Positions 51,815 to 64,000 of a stretch of 64,000 nucleotides of DNA are shown one piece after another (position 1 is the stretch's first letter; each line of letters opens with the position of its first letter). The stretch is from Candidatus Pacearchaeota archaeon (GTDB lineage Archaea; Nanobdellota; Nanobdellia; Pacearchaeales; GW2011-AR1): assembly GCA_038874355.1 (NCBI GenBank), contig JAVZCO010000001.1:231637-295636 (forward strand). The letters run 5' to 3'. The position numbers and the translations under genes were made by a program. Under the pieces are notes generated by a model. That model made no database searches, was not told the DNA's origin, and saw nothing but the letters and a program-made list of their open reading frames with translations.

Positions 51815-53125
51815 CTATCTTTCTAAACTTTCCTTCGTCTCTTTTAAATCAAATTTTTCTTCATATCTTTTTGTTCTTTCTTTTAATATTTCTTTTGCTT
51901 CTTTTTTCTTTATCTTCGTCTTTTTTATAATAAAAAATATTAAACCACCTAAAATAATTATTAAAATAAATACAACAAAATTAGTATTCTTATTATTTTT
52001 ATCTTTTATTAATTTTACACATTCTGCATTTAAACAACATTTTTTTTCATAAGGATATTCTAAACTTTTTTCTAAGCTACTATTACAATATTCATCTTGG
52101 TTACATATTTTCCCAATTTCATAACAATGCTTCAAATATTCTTTACTTTCATTAACTAAAGATTCGTTTTCTGTTAATTTTATAAAAAATTTCATTTCTG
52201 TAAAATAATAAGGATAAAAACTTTCTGCTGCTATATTACCATATAAATCATTTGGTGGGGATATAATTCCTATTTCTATTTCTGAATAATTTTTAGAAGG
52301 AATAATATTTATTTTTTTAGGATATATATCGACATAATCATTTAATTCAGAAGATATTGTAATTTTTATTTCTTTAATGTCAAATGTTCCATTATTAAAA
52401 AGATAGATTTTTTTATTTATTTGAGAATTATTTTTAATATATATAGTTTCATTTAAAGGGTAAAAAATTAATATATTTGTAAAATTAGAAAAATTTTCTA
52501 TATTATTATTCGTTAAATTATGGTATGGGTAAATAAGAATTGGGATTTCGTACTTTTGATTTTCACATTCAATAATTATTTTTTTCATAGAATTATTTTT
52601 AATATCTTTTATAGAAAAAAGAATATTTTTTTCTTCTCCAGCTTTAAGAGAAAAATTTTTTATTTCTTTCTCAAAAGTTGTTTTTACATTAATATTCCCT
52701 TTATTAGAAATAACTTTTATAAAAAAATCTTTATTAGTAATAATAAAGCCAGGATTTATACTACACAAAGAAATATTTCCTTTAACAGAAAAATTAAATT
52801 TTAAATCTTCTTTTTTTATTTTTCCCTCTTCAAAGTAATATACATCTTTTATTATTAATGTATAATTTCTTTCTTTGTTTGGTAAAATAGCATATAAATA
52901 ATAAGAATTTTCTATTTTATTTATATCATATATCATAGATATAAAAATTCCATCCGAATAAAAAAATATATTATCTGCTTTTATATTTTCTAAAAAATTA
53001 CCATCTATTTTTATTATTAAAGTTTCTAATGGAGAATATTCATTCTTTAAATTAGTTTCTATACCCAAACTTAACGGAATAACAAATAAGAAAAATGATA
53101 AAATAAAAAATATTTTTATTCTCAT
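51815..53125 (-). CDS. secreted surface protein with Cys-rich stalk module and C-terminal TM anchor
   Basis: Signal peptide MRIKIFFILSFFLFVIPLSLG. C-terminal CYEIGKICNQDEYC...KKCCLNAEC then TM FVVFILIIILGGLIFFII + KK-rich tail. Confidence 0.4.
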   Translation of the reverse strand: MRIKIFFILSFFLFVIPLSLGIETNLKNEYSPLETLIIKIDGNFLENIKADNIFFYSDGIFISMIYDINKIENSYYLYAILPNKERNYTLIIKDVYYFEEGKIKKEDLKFNFSVKGNISLCSINPGFIITNKDFFIKVISNKGNINVKTTFEKEIKNFSLKAGEEKNILFSIKDIKNNSMKKIIIECENQKYEIPILIYPYHNLTNNNIENFSNFTNILIFYPLNETIYIKNNSQINKKIYLFNNGTFDIKEIKITISSELNDYVDIYPKKINIIPSKNYSEIEIGIISPPNDLYGNIAAESFYPYYFTEMKFFIKLTENESLVNESKEYLKHCYEIGKICNQDEYCNSSLEKSLEYPYEKKCCLNAECVKLIKDKNNKNTNFVVFILIIILGGLIFFIIKKTKIKKKEAKEILKERTKRYEEKFDLKETKESLER

Positions 53126-53180: not shown

Positions 53181-55073
53181 TTATTCTTTGCTTAATTCCC
53201 TCAATTTTTTCATTGTTTCTTCTAATTCTTCATCTTTTTTAGAAGATTGTGCAGGCTTTTTTATCGGTTGTTGTATAGTCCTTAAAGGAGTAATTTGTTT
53301 TTGTTGATATTGCTGTTTTGGCAAACTTCCTAAACCATATCTTTGTAATGGTAAATAAGATTTTGAAGTAGGATAAGTTGTTGAAGTTGAAGGTGGAAAT
53401 GGAGGTCTTTTTGTTTTTATAACACTACTTTCTTTATAACCACTTCTTCTTTTAAAAAGAACAATCCTTATTCTGTTTCTGAAAATTATTAATAAGATTA
53501 CTATTATTATCATCAGTACTAATAAAAAGATTAATAATCCCTTTCCTTTCTTAGGTTCTTCTTTTTCTGAACAACATACTTTATTATCATTACATTCATA
53601 ATCTTTTTCTTCTTCATAATCTTTACAAGAAATTCTACAAGTATAATTATAACTTTCACATTCACTTTCTTCTTCTTTCTTTTCGCATTCTCCTAAACAA
53701 CAATAATTAGTATCAGCTGCATTAACAGTAGAAATAGAACATATTTCATCATTTTTACATATTTCTCCATAGCCATAATAACCAGATAGTTTTTGCATTT
53801 CGGAACATTTTTTCAAAATTATATTTTTTGAGCAACATTTATTTAATCCACTACAATAATATTGACTTAAAACTTCTCCTCCAACATCTTCACAATCTAA
53901 TGCAGACAAACAAAAATACCCTTTATCTATACAATTTTCTTTTTGAGGTATCTCATCACTACTTACTACAGATGGTCTTGGCCACCCAGCCCACAGTAAA
54001 AAAGAAGTATCTCTTATATTACCATTATTCCAGCATCCATCTTGTTGTTGCATTTCTTTTAACCATTCTTCTAATTTATTAAATGATTCATAAGACTTTG
54101 TTTTTATAGAAAATAAAGCAATAGCACTATCATAAAATTTTCCCTTTCCACTATTTAAATCCCAATAACCTTGACTTTTTTGTAAAGAAAGAATGTTTTC
54201 TATGTAATCATCAGTTTTAGTAAAATAATACAAAAAAGCATCTGGAAATAATTTTTGATTATCATCAGAATAAATAACTAAATATGGAATAAAATTTTTT
54301 ATATCATAACCGGCTTGTTGTAAAGCTAAAGAAGCAAATAAAGAAGCTTCATAATTACAATTATTTTTATCATCAGAAAAACAAAAATAGTTAATATTAT
54401 GAGTGACTTCGCTATTAGCAGAACCGGAATTTACTTCACTAGAAACATACCATACGTCGCTAATTATAGATTTTTTGTATAATAAAGTTGTAATAAAATT
54501 TTCGCTACAAGAAATAGTGAAATTATTGTCGAAACAACTCTCTTTAATTCTTAACCAATATCCATTATTTGCAATTTCTAAACAAGAACTAGAAGTAAAA
54601 GTAATTTTTTTATCTTCATTTATTATTAGTTTTGTATTGCCATTGTTCCATTTAACACTACAATTGCTTTTTTTTTCACTATCTATTACTAAATAAACCT
54701 GAATATCTTTTGCCTTTATTTTTTTACTTATTAACCATTCTTCTAATTTTAAAGTATTCTGATTGGAGTAATGTAAAGCTAATGTTGCTAAAGCAGTATC
54801 TTTAACTTTACAAGAATTTTTTGGGAAACAGTCATTAGATTTTTCTTTATTTATTTCTGTAACTAATTTGGAATTAAAAGAAGAATCATGAGCTAATGCA
54901 AGTAAAGAAAAACTTTTTTCTTCTAAGGATAAAGAATTTATTTTTTCATTTACTTTTTGTTTTAAACAAGAATATGCTTTTTCTTCCATCGTTTCATTAG
55001 AAGTAGCTATTACTAAATTTAAACAAAAAATTATAAAAAGAAAGGATAACATAAAACTTACTCTTTTTTTCAT
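53181..55073 (-). CDS. secreted surface protein with prenyltransferase/squalene-oxidase-like repeats, Cys-rich stalk, TM anchor and Pro/Gln-rich cytoplasmic tail
   Basis: Signal MKKRVSFMLSFLFIIFCLNLVIA. QSQGYWDLNSG and QQQDGCWNNGNIRDTSFLLWAGW resemble QW/PFTB repeats. Cys-rich block (GEICKNDEICS...CCLGEC), TM LLIFLLVLMIIIVILLIIF, ~100-aa tail. Confidence 0.45.
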   Translation of the reverse strand: MKKRVSFMLSFLFIIFCLNLVIATSNETMEEKAYSCLKQKVNEKINSLSLEEKSFSLLALAHDSSFNSKLVTEINKEKSNDCFPKNSCKVKDTALATLALHYSNQNTLKLEEWLISKKIKAKDIQVYLVIDSEKKSNCSVKWNNGNTKLIINEDKKITFTSSSCLEIANNGYWLRIKESCFDNNFTISCSENFITTLLYKKSIISDVWYVSSEVNSGSANSEVTHNINYFCFSDDKNNCNYEASLFASLALQQAGYDIKNFIPYLVIYSDDNQKLFPDAFLYYFTKTDDYIENILSLQKSQGYWDLNSGKGKFYDSAIALFSIKTKSYESFNKLEEWLKEMQQQDGCWNNGNIRDTSFLLWAGWPRPSVVSSDEIPQKENCIDKGYFCLSALDCEDVGGEVLSQYYCSGLNKCCSKNIILKKCSEMQKLSGYYGYGEICKNDEICSISTVNAADTNYCCLGECEKKEEESECESYNYTCRISCKDYEEEKDYECNDNKVCCSEKEEPKKGKGLLIFLLVLMIIIVILLIIFRNRIRIVLFKRRSGYKESSVIKTKRPPFPPSTSTTYPTSKSYLPLQRYGLGSLPKQQYQQKQITPLRTIQQPIKKPAQSSKKDEELEETMKKLRELSKE

Positions 55074-55479: not shown

Positions 55480-56271
55480 ATTTTCATTAAAACAAATATT
55501 TTTAAAATTACACATTTGACATTTTTTAAAATTACTGATTATTGGTATACTTTTCTTTTCTTTTAATACATTTTTAATTTCTTCCAAAATTTCTAAAAAT
55601 TCTTTCTTTAATTTATCATTAATTTCAATTTTCTTTTCTTCTTTTTTTGTTTCTATAAAGCCAAAATTAACTTTTCTATCAAATTTCTCTTCTAACAATA
55701 AGGCATATCCAACCAATTGCAGTTTATCTTCTTCATAAATTCTATCTTTATTTTTTATTTCATAAGGAATAATATTATCATTTATCTCCACCCTATCTAT
55801 TCTTCCCTTTAAAAATAATTTTTTAGAAATTATCTCAATTTCTGAATAATATTTTCTTGGTAAATTTTCCCATAATTTTTCTTCAAAATATCCTTTATTT
55901 ATTCCTTCTTCCAGAGAAGATACTCTCAACAAAATTTCCCTTTCTAATTTATTTAAAATATTTTTCTTTAATTCAAATACATTTATATTATATTTTAAAA
56001 TTTTTTCTTCATTTATTTTTATTATTTCACTTAATATTTTTAATACTTCAAATTTATACATCTTTAATATTTCTTCTCTGCCTATTTTTTTTCTTATTCT
56101 TGTTATTATTTCTTTTTCATTTTTATTAAATATATCAAAAATATCATGTTTAATCTTTCCTTCAATCATTCTAGGTGTTGGTTTTTCTTTAATTTTCATT
56201 ATTCTTTTTATATACATCTTTCTTGGGCAATATAGATAAGAAGCAATTTCTGTAACATTTAAAAATCTCAT
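55471..56271 (-). CDS. Cas4-like PD-(D/E)XK nuclease (DUF83) with Fe-S cysteines
   Basis: N-terminal ASYLYCPRKMYI (Cas4 YxxCPR motif). RIDRVE...YEIKN (D..EhK catalytic motif). C-terminal CQMCNFKNIC (three Cys). Confidence 0.6.
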   Translation of the reverse strand: MRFLNVTEIASYLYCPRKMYIKRIMKIKEKPTPRMIEGKIKHDIFDIFNKNEKEIITRIRKKIGREEILKMYKFEVLKILSEIIKINEEKILKYNINVFELKKNILNKLEREILLRVSSLEEGINKGYFEEKLWENLPRKYYSEIEIISKKLFLKGRIDRVEINDNIIPYEIKNKDRIYEEDKLQLVGYALLLEEKFDRKVNFGFIETKKEEKKIEINDKLKKEFLEILEEIKNVLKEKKSIPIISNFKKCQMCNFKNICFNENSF

Positions 56272-57500
56272 TTTTTTTTCATTATTTTATTTTTTAGTAT
56301 AGTATAATTAATAGGATTTTTTATCTTTTTACAAAAATCATCAGAATAACATATATCTATATCCTTGTAATAAGATTTATCACAATTAGGAGGTAATATT
56401 CCCTTGTGTAAAAAATTATATTTTATTTGTTGTAATAAATAATTTTCTTTTAAAGGTTTTTTATTTTTTAAATTCCATTCCTCTACTTTTTTTAATATTT
56501 CTTCTTTTGTAAAATTTAAACTTCTATAATAATTTATTAAAATAAAAAGAGCTCTTTTTCTTCCATCATCTAAGCCTTCTAATATTTTTTTTATACACGG
56601 AGGGTAATATATTGTAGATTTGTCTATTTCTATTTTTTCAAAATTTTTTGTATAAATTTTTTCTTCTTTTTTTATACTTTCTTTCCAATCTAATGCTTGT
56701 ATTAGTAATTCCTTTGCTTCATTTTTTCTAGCTTCTGGATAAAAATTTTTTACTTTTATTTTTAAGTAATGAGCATCCTTCGGTTCAAATGAATCTAATT
56801 CTTTTTTTTCTATAACAACAGAAACTAAACCAGTTTTTTCATGTAAAGAATAAGGAGTTCTGAATAAATGTCTTGAGGAAACTAGAACTAAGTCGGGAAT
56901 AACTCTTTTTGCTTCTTGTTCGTCCCTTATGTAATCTTTTTTTGTTGTTATCCTTGAAATTTCTTTTATTAATTCTTTTTCAACAAACTTATGTAAATAA
57001 GAAATTATTGTCCTAGGAAATTCTGGGAACATCTTCCTTATTTCAATATTGTTTATTTTTTCTGGAAAAGCTTTCCATGGAATTATTATGTGGAATCCTT
57101 TGCTTCCAGAAAATTTTATTCCATAATTTTTTATATCATGGAATTCTAAGGTTTTTATTATTAGCTTAGTCATTATTTTACTATATTCAAAGTATTTACT
57201 ATCGATATCTAAAATTAAATCCCAACCAATTCTTAATTCATCCATTTCTTTTCTATCTAAATTTTTACTTAAATCTAAAGGATTTTTCCATAATTCTTCG
57301 GAACAATGGAAACTTGTAGCACCTTTTTTAACTTCTTGTAAGATTTCATCTTCATATTCTATTATATTTGGCCTTTTTCCAAAATTTTCTTGATATTTTG
57401 TTATCGTTTCTCTGTTTTTACAAAAATCTTTTATTGCTTTTTGTATCTCTTTTCTAGAATAATAAATCTTGCTTATTTCTTTTATACTCTCTTTTTTCAT
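56268..57500 (-). CDS. DNA primase, fused PriS (catalytic) - PriL C-terminal Fe-S domain (Nanoarchaeum-type)
   Basis: Central WDLILDIDSK (primase DxD catalytic motif). C-terminal YYPPCIKKIL...PPNCDKSYYKDIDICYSDDFC resembles the PriL 4Fe-4S domain (PPC motif). Stop overlaps the Cas4-like start (ATGA). Confidence 0.5.
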   Translation of the reverse strand: MKKESIKEISKIYYSRKEIQKAIKDFCKNRETITKYQENFGKRPNIIEYEDEILQEVKKGATSFHCSEELWKNPLDLSKNLDRKEMDELRIGWDLILDIDSKYFEYSKIMTKLIIKTLEFHDIKNYGIKFSGSKGFHIIIPWKAFPEKINNIEIRKMFPEFPRTIISYLHKFVEKELIKEISRITTKKDYIRDEQEAKRVIPDLVLVSSRHLFRTPYSLHEKTGLVSVVIEKKELDSFEPKDAHYLKIKVKNFYPEARKNEAKELLIQALDWKESIKKEEKIYTKNFEKIEIDKSTIYYPPCIKKILEGLDDGRKRALFILINYYRSLNFTKEEILKKVEEWNLKNKKPLKENYLLQQIKYNFLHKGILPPNCDKSYYKDIDICYSDDFCKKIKNPINYTILKNKIMKKK

Positions 57501-57555: not shown

Positions 57556-58278
57556 ATGTTATTAAAATTTATTAATCCTAAATTATTTGTAGATATAATA
57601 AGTATAATTTCAGAATTAGTCACAGAAGTGAAAATAAAAATAAATAAAGATGGTTTAACAATAATAGCAATAGATCCCGCTAATGTTTCTCTGGTTTATT
57701 TTAAAATTCCACCATCCGCATTTTCTATTATAGATATTGAAGAAGAAGAAATATTAGGAGTTAATTTAGATAATCTAAAAACAATACTTAAAAGATATTC
57801 AGCAGGAGATTTAATTTTTCAAACAGAAGAAAATTCTCTAATCATAGAAATACAAGAAAAAATAAAAAGGACTTTTAATCTAGCATTAATAAGTTTGGAT
57901 GAAGAGGAAAAATCAATTCCTACTTTAGATTTCAAAGCAAATGTTCAAATGAGTAGTGTAGATTTTGATATAGCAATACAAGATTGTTCTATAGTTTCAG
58001 AATCTTGTGCATTTATAATTAAAGATAATAAATTTGTCATAGAAGCTCATAGCTTAAATTCAGCAAAATTAGAATTTTCCTCTGATGAAGTTAAAGTGGC
58101 AGGAATCGCTAAATCTAAATATTCTTTAGAATATTTAAAAAAATTTACTAAAGCTTGCAAATTAACAGATAGTGTTTCAATAAGTTTTGCTGATGATTAT
58201 CCATTACAATTAAAATTTTATTCTTCTTCCTTTGAATTAATTTTTATTTTAGCCCCAAGAGTTGAGACAGAAGATTAA
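57556..58278 (+). CDS. pcn: DNA polymerase sliding clamp PCNA
   Basis: 240 aa. MLLKFINPKLFVDIISIISELVTEVKIKINKDGLTIIAIDPANVSLV is a typical PCNA N-terminus, two-domain length. Confidence 0.8.
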   Translation: MLLKFINPKLFVDIISIISELVTEVKIKINKDGLTIIAIDPANVSLVYFKIPPSAFSIIDIEEEEILGVNLDNLKTILKRYSAGDLIFQTEENSLIIEIQEKIKRTFNLALISLDEEEKSIPTLDFKANVQMSSVDFDIAIQDCSIVSESCAFIIKDNKFVIEAHSLNSAKLEFSSDEVKVAGIAKSKYSLEYLKKFTKACKLTDSVSISFADDYPLQLKFYSSSFELIFILAPRVETED

Positions 58279-58433: not shown

Positions 58434-58580
58434 ATGAAATTAAGAATTTCTGCAACTATAGAAAAAGAAACTCTAGAAAAAATTAAAAAAATTCTTAATA
58501 AAGGAAAGTATCGTAATTTATCTCATTTTATAGAGGAGGCAATAAAAGATTTTTATGAGAGAAATAAAGGTGGAAGATAA
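58434..58580 (+). CDS. ribbon-helix-helix (CopG/Arc-like) small DNA-binding protein (48 aa)
   Basis: MKLRISATIEKETLEKIKKILNKGKYRNLSHFIEEAIKDFYERNKGGR shows a beta-strand ISATIEKE plus two helices, the RHH pattern. Not in the ORF track. Confidence 0.5.
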   Translation: MKLRISATIEKETLEKIKKILNKGKYRNLSHFIEEAIKDFYERNKGGR

Positions 58581-58581
58581 T

Positions 58582-58806
58582 ATGCTCTTTAAAAAATTCT
58601 TAGGAATAACAAAAGAAATGGAAATATCTTGTTTAGAAGGATTAATTTCAAGATTAGAACATAATCCAAATGATAAAAAACTAATAGATAGAATTCGAAT
58701 AGGATTAAATGAATGTAAAAGAGATTATGGAATAGAATCAATATCTTATTATGAAAAAAAATATTACGAAATATTAAAAAACTTAATAGAAAAAAATGAA
58801 AAATAA
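58582..58806 (+). CDS. small hypothetical protein (74 aa) coupled to the RHH gene
   Basis: ATG at 58582 follows aaggtgg one nt after the RHH stop. The ORF track lists a longer out-of-frame start at 58555. Confidence 0.35.
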   Translation: MLFKKFLGITKEMEISCLEGLISRLEHNPNDKKLIDRIRIGLNECKRDYGIESISYYEKKYYEILKNLIEKNEK

Positions 58807-59587
58807 ATCTCAAACAACTTTGTTTGTTATAGTATCAATTCTTATAGTTTCTACAATTCTTTTATTTTTTTTTATTACAAGAGGAAAAACAATATTAAAA
58901 CCAGAAATTTCTTATATAGAACCTGAAGAATATATAAAAAAATGTGCAAAAGATTCTGTTACAGATGCTATAAATATTTTATTAGATCAAGGTGGAAATT
59001 TAAATCCAAAAAATTATCTTATTTTTGAAAATAAAAAAGTTTCTTTTTTATGTTACAATAGAAATTATTATTCTTCTTGTATTATACAATATCCTTTACT
59101 TGTAAATCATATAGAAAATGAAATTATAGATTATTCTCTTCCTAAAATAAAAGATTGTCTTTATAATTTATCTAAAAATTATAAGGAAAGAGGTTATGAA
59201 ATAGATTATGATCAACCAAAATTAGAAATAAAATTAAAACCAAATAAAGTTGATATAAATATTCTTTTTCAAAAAGGATTAATTATATCAAAAGAAGATA
59301 GCTTAAAAAAGTATGATGAGATTAAAACATATATTAGTTCTCCAATATATGATTTAGCAGATTTGGCATTAGAAATAGCAAGTCAAGAAGCAAAGTATTG
59401 TTATTTTTCAGTTTTAGGTTATTCTTTGTTATATCAAAGAATAGAAGTTAAAGTAACTCCATCGTTAAGAACATTAAATAATCCAGAAAGAATAGAAAGA
59501 GGGAAAATTTATATTTTAAAAGATATTTATAGTGGTAAGAAATTTTATTTTGCTGTTCGTGGATGCGAAATCCCACCTGGAATATAA
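58796..59587 (+). CDS. prepilin-like protein with class III (archaeal type IV pilin) signal peptide
   Basis: MKNKS/QTTLFVIVSILIVSTILLFFF = basic N-region, S-Q junction, hydrophobic stretch. Paralogous to the ORF starting at 63733 (shared C...GGNLNPKNY...LCY motifs). Confidence 0.4.
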   Translation: MKNKSQTTLFVIVSILIVSTILLFFFITRGKTILKPEISYIEPEEYIKKCAKDSVTDAINILLDQGGNLNPKNYLIFENKKVSFLCYNRNYYSSCIIQYPLLVNHIENEIIDYSLPKIKDCLYNLSKNYKERGYEIDYDQPKLEIKLKPNKVDINILFQKGLIISKEDSLKKYDEIKTYISSPIYDLADLALEIASQEAKYCYFSVLGYSLLYQRIEVKVTPSLRTLNNPERIERGKIYILKDIYSGKKFYFAVRGCEIPPGI

Positions 59588-59811
59588 AAAATAAAAATGA
59601 GAAAAGTAGAAGAAAGAAAATAAAATAACATATAGGAAAGAGGTGACAAAAAATAGATAGAAAAATATGTGTGAAGAGAAGAAAAAGTAAAAAAATAAAT
59701 AAAATAAAAAAGAAAAGCGTATAAAAAAGATTAAGAGAAGTAAAAATCAATAAAAGAAAATAAAAAAGATGTGATAAAGAAAAATAAAAAGAAAAAAATC
59801 CAGAATAAAAA
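59588..59811 (+). other. ~220-nt polypurine (A/G, almost C/T-free) tract upstream of the giant ORF
   Basis: The top strand is almost exclusively A and G (e.g. gagaaaagtagaagaaagaaaat...). The antisense ORF 59448-59852 is a translation artefact of this tract. Confidence 0.6.
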
Positions 59812-62800
59812 ATGAGAAATAAAAGAGGAAAAAAAGATAAAATAATAAGCATATTTGAAATTCTCTTACTTTTAACAGCAACTTTTGCTTTTGCTTATTT
59901 AATAGGAATAGCAACAAATTCTATTACTATTGTAAGTGCTTCCCAAGATATTATTAATTGTTGTCCAGAAACAAAAAATGGTCAAATATGTCAAGAAATT
60001 CCTTATGCAAAATGTAGTGAAGAATGTAATCAATTATGCTCATATTCAAGATGTTCGGAAGTTAGCGAATGTAAATTAGGATGTTGTATAGATAAACAAG
60101 AAGGAAATTGTATTCCAAATACACCAGAAATTTTATGTAGAGAATCTAATACCGAATGGAAGGATGATGCTTCTTGTAATTATAATGAATGTAAACCAGG
60201 ATGTTGTATTATAGGAGATAAAACAATCTTTGTTAACGCAAAAAAATGTGAAATTTTGACTTTGCTTAATGGATTATCAACAATAACAAATTATGACTTC
60301 AGGCAGGGAATGACAGAAATTGAATGTATCGCCTTAGAAAAAAGTACAATTAAAGGAGCATGTTTATTTGTTACAGATGAAAAAACAAATTGTAAAATTT
60401 TAACAAAAGAGGAATGTATAAGACAAACAGGGAGTTATTCTTATTTTTATGAAAATTATTTATGTACAGCTGCAGAATTAAACACTACTTGTAATCCAAC
60501 AACAAATACAACTTGTGTTGATGGAAAAGATGAAGTATATTTTGTTGATTCTTGTGGAAATATAGCAAATATTTACGATTCATCAAAAATTTATAATCCA
60601 AATGACAACAGTTCTATAGAATATTGGACAAAAATTTTTTCAAAAGAAGAATCTTGCAATAATAACTCAGGAAATATTAATTCTGCTTCATGTGGAAATT
60701 GTAATTATCTATTAGGTAGTAGATGCGGAAATTATATTGAAGGAAGATCTCCACAAAATGCTAAGCCAAATTATGGAAATTTTTATTGTAAGGATTTAAA
60801 TTGTTATGATGTTCCTCTTGCCATAAACACAAAAGGAGAAGTTTTGTTAAAAGGAGATAAAAAACATGGGGAACAATGGTGTATCTATGAAACAACAATT
60901 GGAAATGAAACCCAAGATTTAATTATCGGGTATAAAAGAGAAAGAATTAATCCTTTTATATCTAGGGATGTTCCAATAGTTCACAAGACAATTTCTGGAA
61001 GTGATCCTGTAGGTTCTCGTCATTATATAGCAACTTGTTATAATGGAGAATTTTCAATACAGCCTTGTGATGAATATAGAGATAAAATATGTATTCAATC
61101 AGATATAATTATAAATAACATAACTAATGAAAACTTTTCTTCTGCTTCATGTATAGTCAATTTATGGCAAGATTGTTTAAATTATAATTTTCAAATTAAT
61201 AATAATGTAGAAGGGCAAACAACAAATGATATGATGAATGAGTGTTTAAAAAATGAATTTTGTTATGTGAAACAAATAGATATAGATAAATATTTTAATT
61301 TTCCAATATGTCTACCTAAATATAAACCAGCATTTGATTTAACAAATAGAGAGGGTTCTTCTAAAGAAATATGTTCTATGGCATCTCAAACTTGTAAAGT
61401 TATTTATGTGAAAAAATTTTCTGGATGGAAATGCAAAGCCAATTGTGATTGTCTTACAAAAGAATTTACATTAAAAATGAATGAATTTTGTAGAAGTTTA
61501 GGTGATTGTGGAGCTCAAATTAATGTTGCTGGTGAAGTTACAACAAGTAGTTTTAAAGTTTCACGAGCACCACCAATAACCGCTCAAGATATAAAAAATC
61601 TTAATTACTCAAATTTATTAAATATAGAGATAGGAGAATATGCTAGTATTGAAAATTTAAGTTATATTATCAATAGGATGAATATCCCTCCAGAAATGTT
61701 AGAATCAGAAAAATTATTTTCCTCTTCTTTCTTAGGAAGTATCATTGGTGGAACAGGAATACTTTATGCTATTTCCTTACATAATTTAGCAGGAACTGGG
61801 GCAACTCTTTCTCAAATATTTGAATTAGCATTCACAGGAGTTACTACTGTTAAAGAAGCAATATTTTCTTTACCATTTCTTTCAAAGTTATCAAGTCTTC
61901 TTGCAGGTTTTTCAATAGGTTATATGCTATCAAAATTTTTTGGGCTAAGTGAAGGAGCAGCAATTGCAATTGGAGTAATAGGAGCTGTAGTTGCTTTTTA
62001 TGGAATTACTCAAGGATGGTTTAGCATTACAACTTTAGGATTTATTGGTTTAACTATAATAATTTTAAGTTTTTTATTTGGAATAGGAAAAAAGAAAGTA
62101 GTGCAAGTTACTTCAACATGCTCTCCTTATCAAGTTCCAATTGGAGGAGAAAATTGCGATTTTTGTAATAAAAATGAATACCTCCCTTGCAATAGATATA
62201 AATGTACTTCTTTAGGAACAGCATGTAAATTCATAAATGAAGGAACACCACAGGAAAAATGTATAGCAAGTATTAATGATCATACTGCTCCAATCATTTC
62301 TCCATTAAAATTTGATAATTATACTTATAATGAACTTCAAAATGGTTATGAAATAAAAACAAAAAATAACGAATGCTTTGAAGCATGGCAAGATATTTTA
62401 TTAGGAATAACAACTAATGAAGTTTCTCAATGTAAAATTTCTTTAAATCCTGGAAGTTCTCCTACATATTTTGATAATATTCCAGAATATTTTCCCAATA
62501 CAATTTACCAAGAAAATCACACTTTATTATATAAATTACCTTCTGCAGATTTATTAGGAGCAATCGGTTTTAGTCCAACTAGAACAGGAACAATTAATTT
62601 TTATATAAGATGTCAAGATGATTGGGGAAATAAAAATACTGTAGATTATATAATAAAAACATGTGTAAAACCAGAACCAGATAAAACACCACCTATAATA
62701 AATAAATTTTCTCCAGAAGAAGAAAATGCTTATTTAGGTTTTGAAAAAAATAATTTTTCTTTAACAATTTTCACAAACGAACCAGCAGAATGTAAGTATA

Positions 62801-63687
62801 GTTTTATTAATAAAAATTATGATGAAATGGAATATAATTTTAGTTGCTCCTCAAATAAAATACTTTCTCCAGAAGAACTTTTTTCTTCAATCAACGAAAC
62901 AGAAGATGAAACAGAAGTAGAAATAAATTTTTCTGAGATATCTTACACAAAAGAAGATATTTTAAATTCTTATCTTTCTATGCAAACAATATTTGGTTTT
63001 CCTTGTTATGCAGAAATAAATACAAAAGACAATTATACAATATTTATAAAATGCAAAGATCAACCATGGTATGAAGAAGAAAATGAATCTTTAAGAAATG
63101 TAAATTTACAACCTCAACCATTAAATGGTTATACAATAAAAAAATCTTTATCTCAATTAAATATAGATTCTATTCTACCTAAAGGTGAAATTTTAGCAGG
63201 AACATCTCCATTTACTATAGAATTAATTGCAACAACTTCTGGTGGGGTTGATGGAAAAGCTACATGCTATTACTCTTTTAATGGTAAAGATTTTTCAATG
63301 TTTTATGAAACTGGTTCAACAAAACACAAACAAACTTTTAATCAAATTATTGAAGGGGATTATACAATATATGTTAAGTGTATAGATAAGGCAGGAAATA
63401 TTGCTTTAAACAGCACAACTTTTTACTTACAGACAGATACAAAAGCCCCAAAAGTAATTAGAACTTATTCTTCTCTTGGAATTTTAACAATAATAACAGA
63501 TGAAGAATCTTATTGTAGTTATTCTGCATCTAATTGTAACTTTATGTATGAAAACGGAACTTCGATGGAAAATTACGGGAAAATTCATACTACCCCAGTT
63601 CAATATGGCAAAACATATTACATAAAATGTAAGGATATTTATGGAAATTTACCTTCTCAATGTAGCATAATTATAAGAAATATATAA
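59812..63687 (+). CDS. giant (1291 aa) Cys-rich secreted/surface protein with a central polytopic membrane segment
   Basis: N-terminal signal/anchor KIISIFEILLLLTATFAFAYLIG. More than 80 Cys in CxxxC / CC-containing modules. Residues ~640-760 form 4-5 hydrophobic helices (GTGILYAISL...GLTIIILSFLFGIGKKK). C-terminal Cys-rich beta-like repeats. Confidence 0.5.
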   Translation: MRNKRGKKDKIISIFEILLLLTATFAFAYLIGIATNSITIVSASQDIINCCPETKNGQICQEIPYAKCSEECNQLCSYSRCSEVSECKLGCCIDKQEGNCIPNTPEILCRESNTEWKDDASCNYNECKPGCCIIGDKTIFVNAKKCEILTLLNGLSTITNYDFRQGMTEIECIALEKSTIKGACLFVTDEKTNCKILTKEECIRQTGSYSYFYENYLCTAAELNTTCNPTTNTTCVDGKDEVYFVDSCGNIANIYDSSKIYNPNDNSSIEYWTKIFSKEESCNNNSGNINSASCGNCNYLLGSRCGNYIEGRSPQNAKPNYGNFYCKDLNCYDVPLAINTKGEVLLKGDKKHGEQWCIYETTIGNETQDLIIGYKRERINPFISRDVPIVHKTISGSDPVGSRHYIATCYNGEFSIQPCDEYRDKICIQSDIIINNITNENFSSASCIVNLWQDCLNYNFQINNNVEGQTTNDMMNECLKNEFCYVKQIDIDKYFNFPICLPKYKPAFDLTNREGSSKEICSMASQTCKVIYVKKFSGWKCKANCDCLTKEFTLKMNEFCRSLGDCGAQINVAGEVTTSSFKVSRAPPITAQDIKNLNYSNLLNIEIGEYASIENLSYIINRMNIPPEMLESEKLFSSSFLGSIIGGTGILYAISLHNLAGTGATLSQIFELAFTGVTTVKEAIFSLPFLSKLSSLLAGFSIGYMLSKFFGLSEGAAIAIGVIGAVVAFYGITQGWFSITTLGFIGLTIIILSFLFGIGKKKVVQVTSTCSPYQVPIGGENCDFCNKNEYLPCNRYKCTSLGTACKFINEGTPQEKCIASINDHTAPIISPLKFDNYTYNELQNGYEIKTKNNECFEAWQDILLGITTNEVSQCKISLNPGSSPTYFDNIPEYFPNTIYQENHTLLYKLPSADLLGAIGFSPTRTGTINFYIRCQDDWGNKNTVDYIIKTCVKPEPDKTPPIINKFSPEEENAYLGFEKNNFSLTIFTNEPAECKYSFINKNYDEMEYNFSCSSNKILSPEELFSSINETEDETEVEINFSEISYTKEDILNSYLSMQTIFGFPCYAEINTKDNYTIFIKCKDQPWYEEENESLRNVNLQPQPLNGYTIKKSLSQLNIDSILPKGEILAGTSPFTIELIATTSGGVDGKATCYYSFNGKDFSMFYETGSTKHKQTFNQIIEGDYTIYVKCIDKAGNIALNSTTFYLQTDTKAPKVIRTYSSLGILTIITDEESYCSYSASNCNFMYENGTSMENYGKIHTTPVQYGKTYYIKCKDIYGNLPSQCSIIIRNI

Positions 63688-63732
63688 TAAATTAACAAAA
63701 ATGTTTATAAATAAGAAAGAATTTATACTAAA

Positions 63733-64000
63733 ATGAAAAACAAAAAAGCACAATTAACTTTATTTATAATTATTTCTATTTTTATTGTTGCTTTATTATT
63801 AATAATTTTTTGGCCAAAAGTAAAAACAATCTTTATCTCATCCTCCCCGGAAATTGATTTTCAAAAATGTATAGAAAATGATTTGAAAAAAGAAATTTCT
63901 TTAATTGCTTCAAATGGAGGGAGTAAAAATCCTAAACTATATTATTCTTATCAAGGAGATAAAATAGAATATTTATGTTACACTAACGAAAATTATAAAA
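63733..64000 (+). CDS. prepilin-like protein (paralog of 58796-59587), 3' end cut by window edge
   Basis: MKNKKA/QLTLFIIISIFIVALLLIIF class III-like signal. Downstream ...CIENDL...NGGSKNPKLYYSYQGDKIEYLCY is conserved with the upstream paralog. Confidence 0.4.
   Translation, partial: MKNKKAQLTLFIIISIFIVALLLIIFWPKVKTIFISSSPEIDFQKCIENDLKKEISLIASNGGSKNPKLYYSYQGDKIEYLCYTNENYK

Follow-up and report, generated by a model that had tools for sequence, protein, structure and literature searches.

The 64,000-nucleotide (nt) stretch of DNA analysed here, termed the window below, comes from a Candidatus Pacearchaeota metagenome-assembled genome (MAG), that is, from a DPANN archaeon, as had been surmised earlier from the letters alone. 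Towards its 3' end it carries three consecutive forward-strand genes which are the subject of this report. Gene A1 (58796–59587) encodes a protein of 263 amino acids (aa) with a class III-type signal and corresponds to QW117_01800 (100% identity), G1 (59812–63687) encodes a giant membrane protein of 1291 aa, and A2 (63733–64000) runs past the window end so that only the first 89 of its 251 residues are covered, the full-length product being P0211 (QW117_01810, 251 aa). In the original prediction, made before any database search, the two small proteins were described as prepilin-like paralogs flanking a cysteine-rich giant in a candidate surface or attachment module. All three genes are real by open reading frame (ORF) calls, A1 and A2 are indeed paralogs (39% identity over 93 residues, E = 4e-16), and both the common N-terminus and the downstream block carrying the motifs GG..NPK.Y and K...LCY are present.

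This part of the window looks like the 5' part of a cell-surface gene cluster of about 13–14 kb which is vertically inherited and specific to Pacearchaeota and Woesearchaeota. About 90 related loci were obtained from context look-ups and from a scan of one genome per GTDB species, and their usual gene order is PCNA, a small winged helix-turn-helix (wHTH) gene, one to three A-G cassettes, four further small genes denoted S1-S2-S3-S4 and, on the opposite strand, an HVO_A0114-type wHTH gene. In 44 of 58 loci PCNA is encoded upstream at a distance of no more than 2.5 kb, and in 27–28 related loci a gene for a wHTH protein of 60–85 aa immediately precedes A. Genes S1-S4 and the final wHTH gene follow the last G in 9–11 of 16 loci, a count limited to those with at least 3.5 kb of sequence beyond that gene. 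A G-type gene lay on the same strand within 400 nt downstream of 106 of the 121 A genes for which enough following sequence was available, the gap having a median of 0 nt, and for most of the remaining A genes the next same-strand gene was still of G-type, at a distance exceeding 400 nt. Conservation of synteny across related genomes thus extends well past the three genes first noticed.

Between PCNA and S1 there is a single A-G cassette in seven loci, two cassettes in ten and three in three, and the pairing within cassettes is cognate, A1-type genes preceding fused G1-type genes in 55/57 instances and A2-type genes preceding G2-type genes in 60/60. Every G paralog is matched by an A partner that co-evolves with it and whose gene comes just before it. 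Given these tandem pairs in relatives, A2 belongs to a second giant gene lying past the window end, where it heads the second cassette, and the apparent flanking of one giant protein by two paralogs is a by-product. In the nearest relatives A2 is followed by G2, encoding 1349 aa in locus L002 and 1229 aa in L093. The latter is the nearest relative present on a long contig; its G1 is 61% identical to that of the window, its upstream genes are the same, and its order is A1-G1-A2-G2-S1-S2-S3-S4-wHTH, with a nucleotidyltransferase/HepT-like (MNT/HepT) toxin-antitoxin pair inserted between A2 and G2 (L093 14757–15534). In most genomes G2 is split into a gene for the N-domain (about 570 aa) and another for the membrane and immunoglobulin (Ig)-like part (about 740 aa), and it is fused in some lineages (1229–1442 aa); this fission or fusion, noted for the second giant gene of L009 (14653–19293) and L002 (6627–10676), clearly marks a domain boundary. 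Small unrelated ORFs occur occasionally between the split halves.

At least 286 loci were confirmed by tblastn and they derive from MAGs labelled Pacearchaeota, Woesearchaeota, Nanoarchaeota or unclassified archaeon, with one "bacterium" and one "Methanosarcinales" as exceptions. By word search, the G family comprises more than 343 full-length homologs, every one of which is labelled "hypothetical". The same kind of search yielded 589 homologs of A, and an exhaustive hidden Markov model search of 50%-identity cluster representatives with the A profile produced 6051 at E <= 1e-3 and 2105 at E <= 1e-10. Relative to the window copies, PCNA and the primase are about 52% identical, and A1 and G1 32–34% identical, in the same loci. 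The literature searched contained no account of the cluster, in accord with the earlier statement that this is not a described operon type.

The presence of primase, PCNA and Cas4-like nuclease genes directly upstream, the small regulators and the MNT/HepT pair inserted in the L093 cluster could be taken to favour descent of the module from a virus or mobile element, for example as an entry or fusion apparatus. This origin is essentially excluded, however, by a chromosomal position that is constant in most loci of a class-level clade, by a base composition that is uniform across the window (G+C about 22%), by a primase of the apparently fused PriS-PriL cellular type, and by the finding of neither a PHROG match nor a relative among 2.9 million viral contigs.

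The feature that unites the A and S proteins is their N-terminus. In proteins with class III signals, a peptidase of the A24 family cuts off a charged leader and leaves about 20 hydrophobic residues in place (PMC4858521), and a Gln at position +1 is essential for processing by the Methanococcus pilin peptidase EppA (PMC4390842). A1 has the leader MKNK with Ser at −1 and Gln at +1, and a transmembrane (TM) helix spanning residues 4–32, while A2 reads KKA|QLTLF around the predicted cleavage site. Among 109 members of the A family, position −2 is Lys or Arg in 101, position −1 is always small (Gly in 56, Ser in 30 and Ala in 23), positions +1 and +3 are invariably Gln and Thr, respectively, and +5 is aromatic, either Phe or Trp, in 106. 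Leaders have a median length of 10 residues, and the uncharged stretch that comes after them a median of 23. In an alignment of 118 A sequences Gln6 is invariant, and the FlaFind pattern was found in 80 of these in its strict form and in 106 when Ser was accepted at −1.

The S proteins carry variants of the same design, namely K[KR][GA]Q...SFGMIFSIILI in S1, KKG[FY]Q.SFAWLFAII in S2, K[KR][GA]Q.KIQQMAF in S3 and K[KR][GAS]QEE.VGF in S4. Common to all five families is a start consisting of a short basic leader, [KR][GAS], Gln (Phe or Tyr in S2) and a hydrophobic helix. In 59 of 63 S proteins, a run of 16 or more uncharged residues begins no further than 10 residues after [KR][GAS], and only 2 of the 63 contain the strict FlaFind pattern, owing to polar residues at +2 to +5. 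Profile comparisons with clean seeds revealed that the A and S families resemble one another solely in the leader and helix region, a behaviour typical of pilin-like proteins. As far as sequence can tell, the N-termini of A and S1-S4 are thus built like class III (type IV pilin-like, EppA-type) signals.

The remainder of A1 is a predicted extracytoplasmic alpha/beta domain with four invariant Cys residues (50, 86, 95 and 121). In the AlphaFold model, which has a predicted local distance difference test (pLDDT) score of 89.9, a low-confidence linker (residues 33–42) is followed by a domain built of three helix-plus-sheet units.

G1 contains 68 Cys residues, amounting to 5.3% of the protein as compared with 0.6% for nine other ORFs of the window. 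They are divided between an N-terminal ectodomain (residues 44–640; 59941–61731, forward strand) with 47 and a C-terminal ectodomain (residues 766–1291; 62107–63684, forward strand) with 21, and none occur in the central Gly/Ala-rich hydrophobic region (residues 641–765; 61732–62106, forward strand) delimited by a hydropathy scan. The cysteine richness noted earlier is therefore strong, although the "dozens of CxxC/CC motifs" were overstated, there being three CC and two CxxC. For the centre, where four to five TM helices had been proposed, the scan yielded two strong segments (708–737 and 739–762) and two weaker ones. Since the internal TM segments seem to be even in number, both Cys-rich domains would lie outside the cell, as hydropathy and Cys content together suggest.

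The N-terminal ectodomain appears to consist of tandem small beta-beta-alpha Cys modules followed by a beta-rich core, and its AlphaFold model (pLDDT 89.4) had no significant match in the PDB. The C-terminal ectodomain begins with a Cys knot and continues with four modules; these had been read as Cys-rich repeats, and the repeat is indeed four-fold, but its units are probable Ig-like modules with one conserved Cys pair each (874/934, 994/1081, 1152/1190 and 1235/1273) and the motif C.YS...x-C-x-D-x-x-G-N. Pfam searches with 37 G homologs, G1 included, detected only Ig-like families, with Big_13 in 16 (best E 3.5e-8), DUF4625 in 8 and Y_Y_Y in 4, and neither DUF2341 nor a PilY1 domain; the match of G1 itself to Big_13 scored 17.4 bits, below the cut-off of 27. 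There was no Pfam, NCBIfam or PHROG match for A, S1-S4 or the G N-domain, and profile searches against PDB sequences with A or G gave nothing significant. For residues 641–765 the sole match to a PDB sequence was to the type III secretion translocator AopB, at a non-significant E of 0.27 that is probably compositional.

G1 also has a conserved N-terminal hydrophobic helix (IISIFEILLLLTATFAFAYLIGI; 59845–59913, forward strand), followed by VSA at residues 41–43, and the underlying motif [FL][EQ]I..L....FAFSY...VSA is kept across 87 homologs. Some G homologs carry KKAG|ISY[FL][EQ], which recalls those bacterial pilins that have Glu at +5. The suggestion that the N-terminus of the giant might itself be class III-like is not supported for the window protein, which lacks Gly, Ala or Ser at the would-be −1 position and would thus be a poor substrate for a prepilin peptidase. 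Where G2 is split, the membrane/Ig half starts with a hydrophobic motif resembling, by eye, that of fused G, and the N-domain half has an ordinary Sec-type signal, from which it would follow that the G helix is a retained and functional membrane element rather than a discarded signal. G is accordingly described, on its predicted topology, as a giant membrane protein in which two large disulfide-type ectodomains are joined by a hydrophobic hairpin region, with a conserved N-terminal helix in addition.

The reading that we favour, at a probability of about 0.5 for the composite of processing, assembly and contact role, is that the A-G-S cluster encodes a lineage-specific surface complex. A prepilin-type peptidase encoded elsewhere in the genome would trim the leaders of A and S1-S4, and the N-terminal helices of these proteins would pack with the membrane helices of G to produce one complex or a short stalk, which would not be a long retractile pilus. 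A would serve G as its cognate subunit, in assembly or as a partner, and through the complex the ectodomains of G would be exposed so as to contact another cell or some other conserved external ligand. For a surface location we count the invariant Cys frameworks, the Ig-like modules with their Cys pairs, and the S-layer-like and two secreted or membrane neighbours described below. The cell-contact role is what we infer for the complex, and Pacearchaeota have been reported to be strongly host-attached (bioRxiv 10.1101/2020.05.14.094862).

Several results weigh against this reading. The A1 model revealed neither a significant PDB match nor the pilin fold that was looked for after the TM helix; in type IV pilins the N-terminal helix runs into, and packs on, a beta-sheet or Ig-like domain, and A1 as modelled is not built in this way. 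No pilin, archaellin or class III family occurred among Pfam and NCBIfam matches at E <= 1 for A1, A2 and S1-S4. Similarly, no class III or archaellin model was present among the 25 most frequent Pfam families of the 118 A members, and the sole pilin-related Pfam name in the A family was Flp1_like (3 of 118 members, best E 0.067). In S1, S3 and S4, moreover, three to six polar or charged residues separate Gln from the hydrophobic core. The window and the 10 kb around each of the approximately 90 loci yielded no A24 peptidase, PilB/FlaI-type ATPase or PilC. In particular, five multi-TM ORFs scanned in the window included no prepilin peptidase, a motif scan over 1.3 Mb of related loci revealed neither an A24-like nor a secretion-ATPase-like motif, the approximately 90 loci gave no protein of at least 300 aa with the ATPase motif GxxGxGK[ST]T, and none of the genes called in L009, L011 and L093 was annotated by Pfam as T2SSE or T2SSF. 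DPANN genomes are stated in one preprint to lack type IV pilus components (bioRxiv 10.1101/2020.05.14.094862). Lastly, the frequency of the majority residue in G is 0.50–0.63 in the ectodomains, peaking at 0.63 in the membrane-proximal Cys knot, and is lowest, at 0.39, in the TM region; such even and fairly high conservation of the ectodomains across a very broad clade fits a structural role at least as well as, and perhaps better than, a host-specific adhesin.

Many of these observations would suit the main alternative, in which the signals are uncleaved anchors, with [KR][GAS]Q and the helices maintained for packing in the membrane, and A, S1-S4 and G constituting a fixed machine with nothing pilus-like about it, which might serve in envelope or S-layer anchoring, for instance, or in uptake through a pore of Gly-rich G helices. 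We consider this possible, if somewhat doubtful. It would account for the lack of peptidase, ATPase and platform genes near the loci and for the reported deficit of pilus components in DPANN genomes (bioRxiv 10.1101/2020.05.14.094862). It is also consistent with the flexible linker and non-pilin domain of A, with a conserved G helix that would be poorly cleaved in the window protein, with the S-layer-like gene that adjoins the cluster, and with the even conservation of the G ectodomains. Against it, five families that are unrelated in their globular parts all have the same signature precisely where the helix ends on the cytoplasmic side, namely an invariant small residue at −1 flanked by a basic residue at −2 and by Gln at +1; this placement is what recognition by a peptidase predicts, and helix packing alone hardly explains it.

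The class III anatomy in the original prediction is real and highly conserved among the 109 A members, although it is not accompanied by a match to any curated class III or pilin model in Pfam or NCBIfam, and the pilin label is half right, the signal being present and the fold absent. Since pilin fold, curated models, linked ATPase or platform, and DUF2341 all failed to appear, the cluster was not classed as a type IV pilus system, with which it has in common only the signal anatomy and the operon logic. On the strength of that logic a classical accessory operon may be considered, in which A and S1-S4 would be minor pilins priming a true pilus, PilB and PilC would be encoded elsewhere and G would be a tip adhesin, like PilY1 in Pseudomonas or the DUF2341 proteins in the Epd-type loci of methanococci. 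At least five class III-type families occur together with a large non-pilin protein, as in minor-pilin/PilY1 operons and archaeal clade 1 loci (PMC4858521). We nonetheless judge this improbable, primarily because G is polytopic, with two to four internal TM segments besides its N-terminal helix, and could not be lifted from the membrane onto a pilus tip, and because the cluster includes no candidate major pilin. The missing pilin fold of A, the missing DUF2341 of G, and the lack of a linked ATPase, platform or EppA gene in the approximately 90 loci argue in the same direction.

The closest analogues in gene organisation remain the archaeal clade 1 (Epd-type) type IV pilus loci, which encode at least five minor pilins and a large DUF2341 protein (PMC4858521); the Pseudomonas FimU-PilVWXE and PilY1 operon is also close. 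What the cluster shares with them is the combination of about five pilin-signal proteins with one very large surface protein that is not a pilin. Unlike the large proteins of these modules, G is integral to the membrane and has a TM hairpin of its own, carries neither DUF2341 nor a beta-propeller, and is duplicated with a private A for each copy, and no major pilin accompanies it.

With respect to the signals, the nearest parallel lies in the class III proteins processed by EppA or PibD, such as EpdA-E of Methanococcus maripaludis, which have in common with A, and with variations S1-S4, the short basic leader, the small residue at −1 and the invariant Gln at +1; the roughly 20 hydrophobic residues that they keep at the mature N-terminus correspond to the uncharged stretch of A. 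There too, several such proteins are encoded together and are alike between families only at the N-terminus (PMC4390842, PMC4858521). The present families differ from them in the non-pilin globular domain of A, in the polar insert after Gln in S1, S3 and S4, in lacking matches to the DUF361, Pilin_N or archaellin models and in having no linked peptidase, ATPase or platform, and cleavage is here a prediction. In the lineages in which they occur and in where they are predicted to reside, the A, G and S families resemble Module 98 of Castelle et al. 2021, a set of 51 protein families specific to Pacearchaeota and Woesearchaeota, the majority lacking an assigned function and many being membrane-bound or extracellular (PMC8204110), although these families were listed in bulk and the cluster was not described. 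The A, G and S families are probably among these unannotated families.

The bindosome of Sulfolobus provides a precedent of another kind, in that class III-signal sugar-binding proteins are assembled with BasABC and BasEF, the latter being a dedicated ATPase and membrane protein. In both cases class III-type signals would anchor non-pilin globular proteins at the surface with no long filament being formed; in contrast to the bindosome, the cluster contains neither a BasEF-type ATPase and membrane protein nor solute-binding substrates. The cluster would belong with class III-signal surface assemblies, and it is larger than the trio first noticed.

Few uncultivated archaea are as widespread as Pacearchaeota and Woesearchaeota, which have tiny genomes and are thought to live attached to other cells. 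To our knowledge, no attachment apparatus has been recognised for them. In a genome of about 0.6 Mb the cluster accounts for roughly 2%; it occurs in hundreds of species-level genomes, and its products are all unannotated membrane or surface proteins. Their wide occurrence, together with confidently predicted folds that lack significant PDB matches, makes it a concrete candidate for contact or envelope machinery. It also raises the question of how class III signals are used with no pilus motor nearby, and possibly with none at all; if the genomes truly lack an A24 peptidase and a pilus ATPase, the system would be categorically new. A bolder version, which we regard as rather unlikely, is that of an unknown kind of archaeal envelope machine, confined to Pacearchaeota and Woesearchaeota and operating without a type IV pilus ATPase, in which the pilin-like N-terminal helices of the five small proteins and G would form a membrane-anchored stalk or pore that holds a disulfide-rich head, of a fold without counterpart in the PDB, against a partner cell, and which might underlie episymbiotic attachment and possibly the exchange of material.

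Upstream of A1, the window carries genes for a Cas4-like nuclease, a primase and PCNA, followed by two small ORFs. The primase is a 410-aa protein (56268–57500, reverse strand) that matches the small primase subunit model above, and the large subunit model below, the Pfam cut-off, which suggests a fused PriS-PriL protein. PCNA (57556–58278) precedes the gene called for a 48-aa ribbon-helix-helix (RHH, CopG-like) protein (58434–58580, forward strand), for which a weak match to PF01402 (RHH_1) was obtained in the identical DNA of L001. Next is a 74-aa ORF with no assigned function (58582–58806, forward strand) and no Pfam or PHROG match, the stop of which overlaps the A1 start at 58796, suggesting translational coupling. 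Most relatives have in this position a 60-aa winged-helix gene overlapping the A1 start (for example L009 9049–9231), and the nearest relatives have an ORF of 45–49 aa, so that the regulator slot appears to be exchangeable.

A1 and G1 are separated in the window by a 224-nt A/G-rich spacer (59588–59811, forward strand) detected in a composition scan; it consists of 151 A, 35 G, 32 T and 6 C, and its purine content of 83% is the maximum in the 64 kb. At the same position the gap in relatives is just 0–2 nt, and the Logan contig L001 terminates within the spacer. An insertion, a regulatory leader and a low-complexity tract prone to assembly problems are all conceivable explanations.

Two further genes, which are kept beside the cluster in most loci, lie farther upstream on the reverse strand. 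One (53181–55073) encodes a 630-aa protein, unrelated to G, with a signal peptide, 29 Cys residues, a C-terminal TM helix and a Pro/Gln-rich tail, and the other (51815–53125) a 436-aa protein with an N-terminal signal-like hydrophobic segment; neither gave a significant Pfam or PHROG match. In several genomes the cluster is followed immediately by a gene for an S-layer-like protein (L009 from 22623 onward, L069 18232–20754 and L086 19120–20748), with a faint S_layer_C match and the N-terminus MRLNFKRISA. Finally, a few kb upstream of the cluster some loci encode a small secreted protein with a helix-hairpin-helix motif (INTASLEELDKLSGIGPVKA) that, by eye, resembles that of ComEA (L045 3473–4018, L064 2840–3418 and L020 3084–3635).

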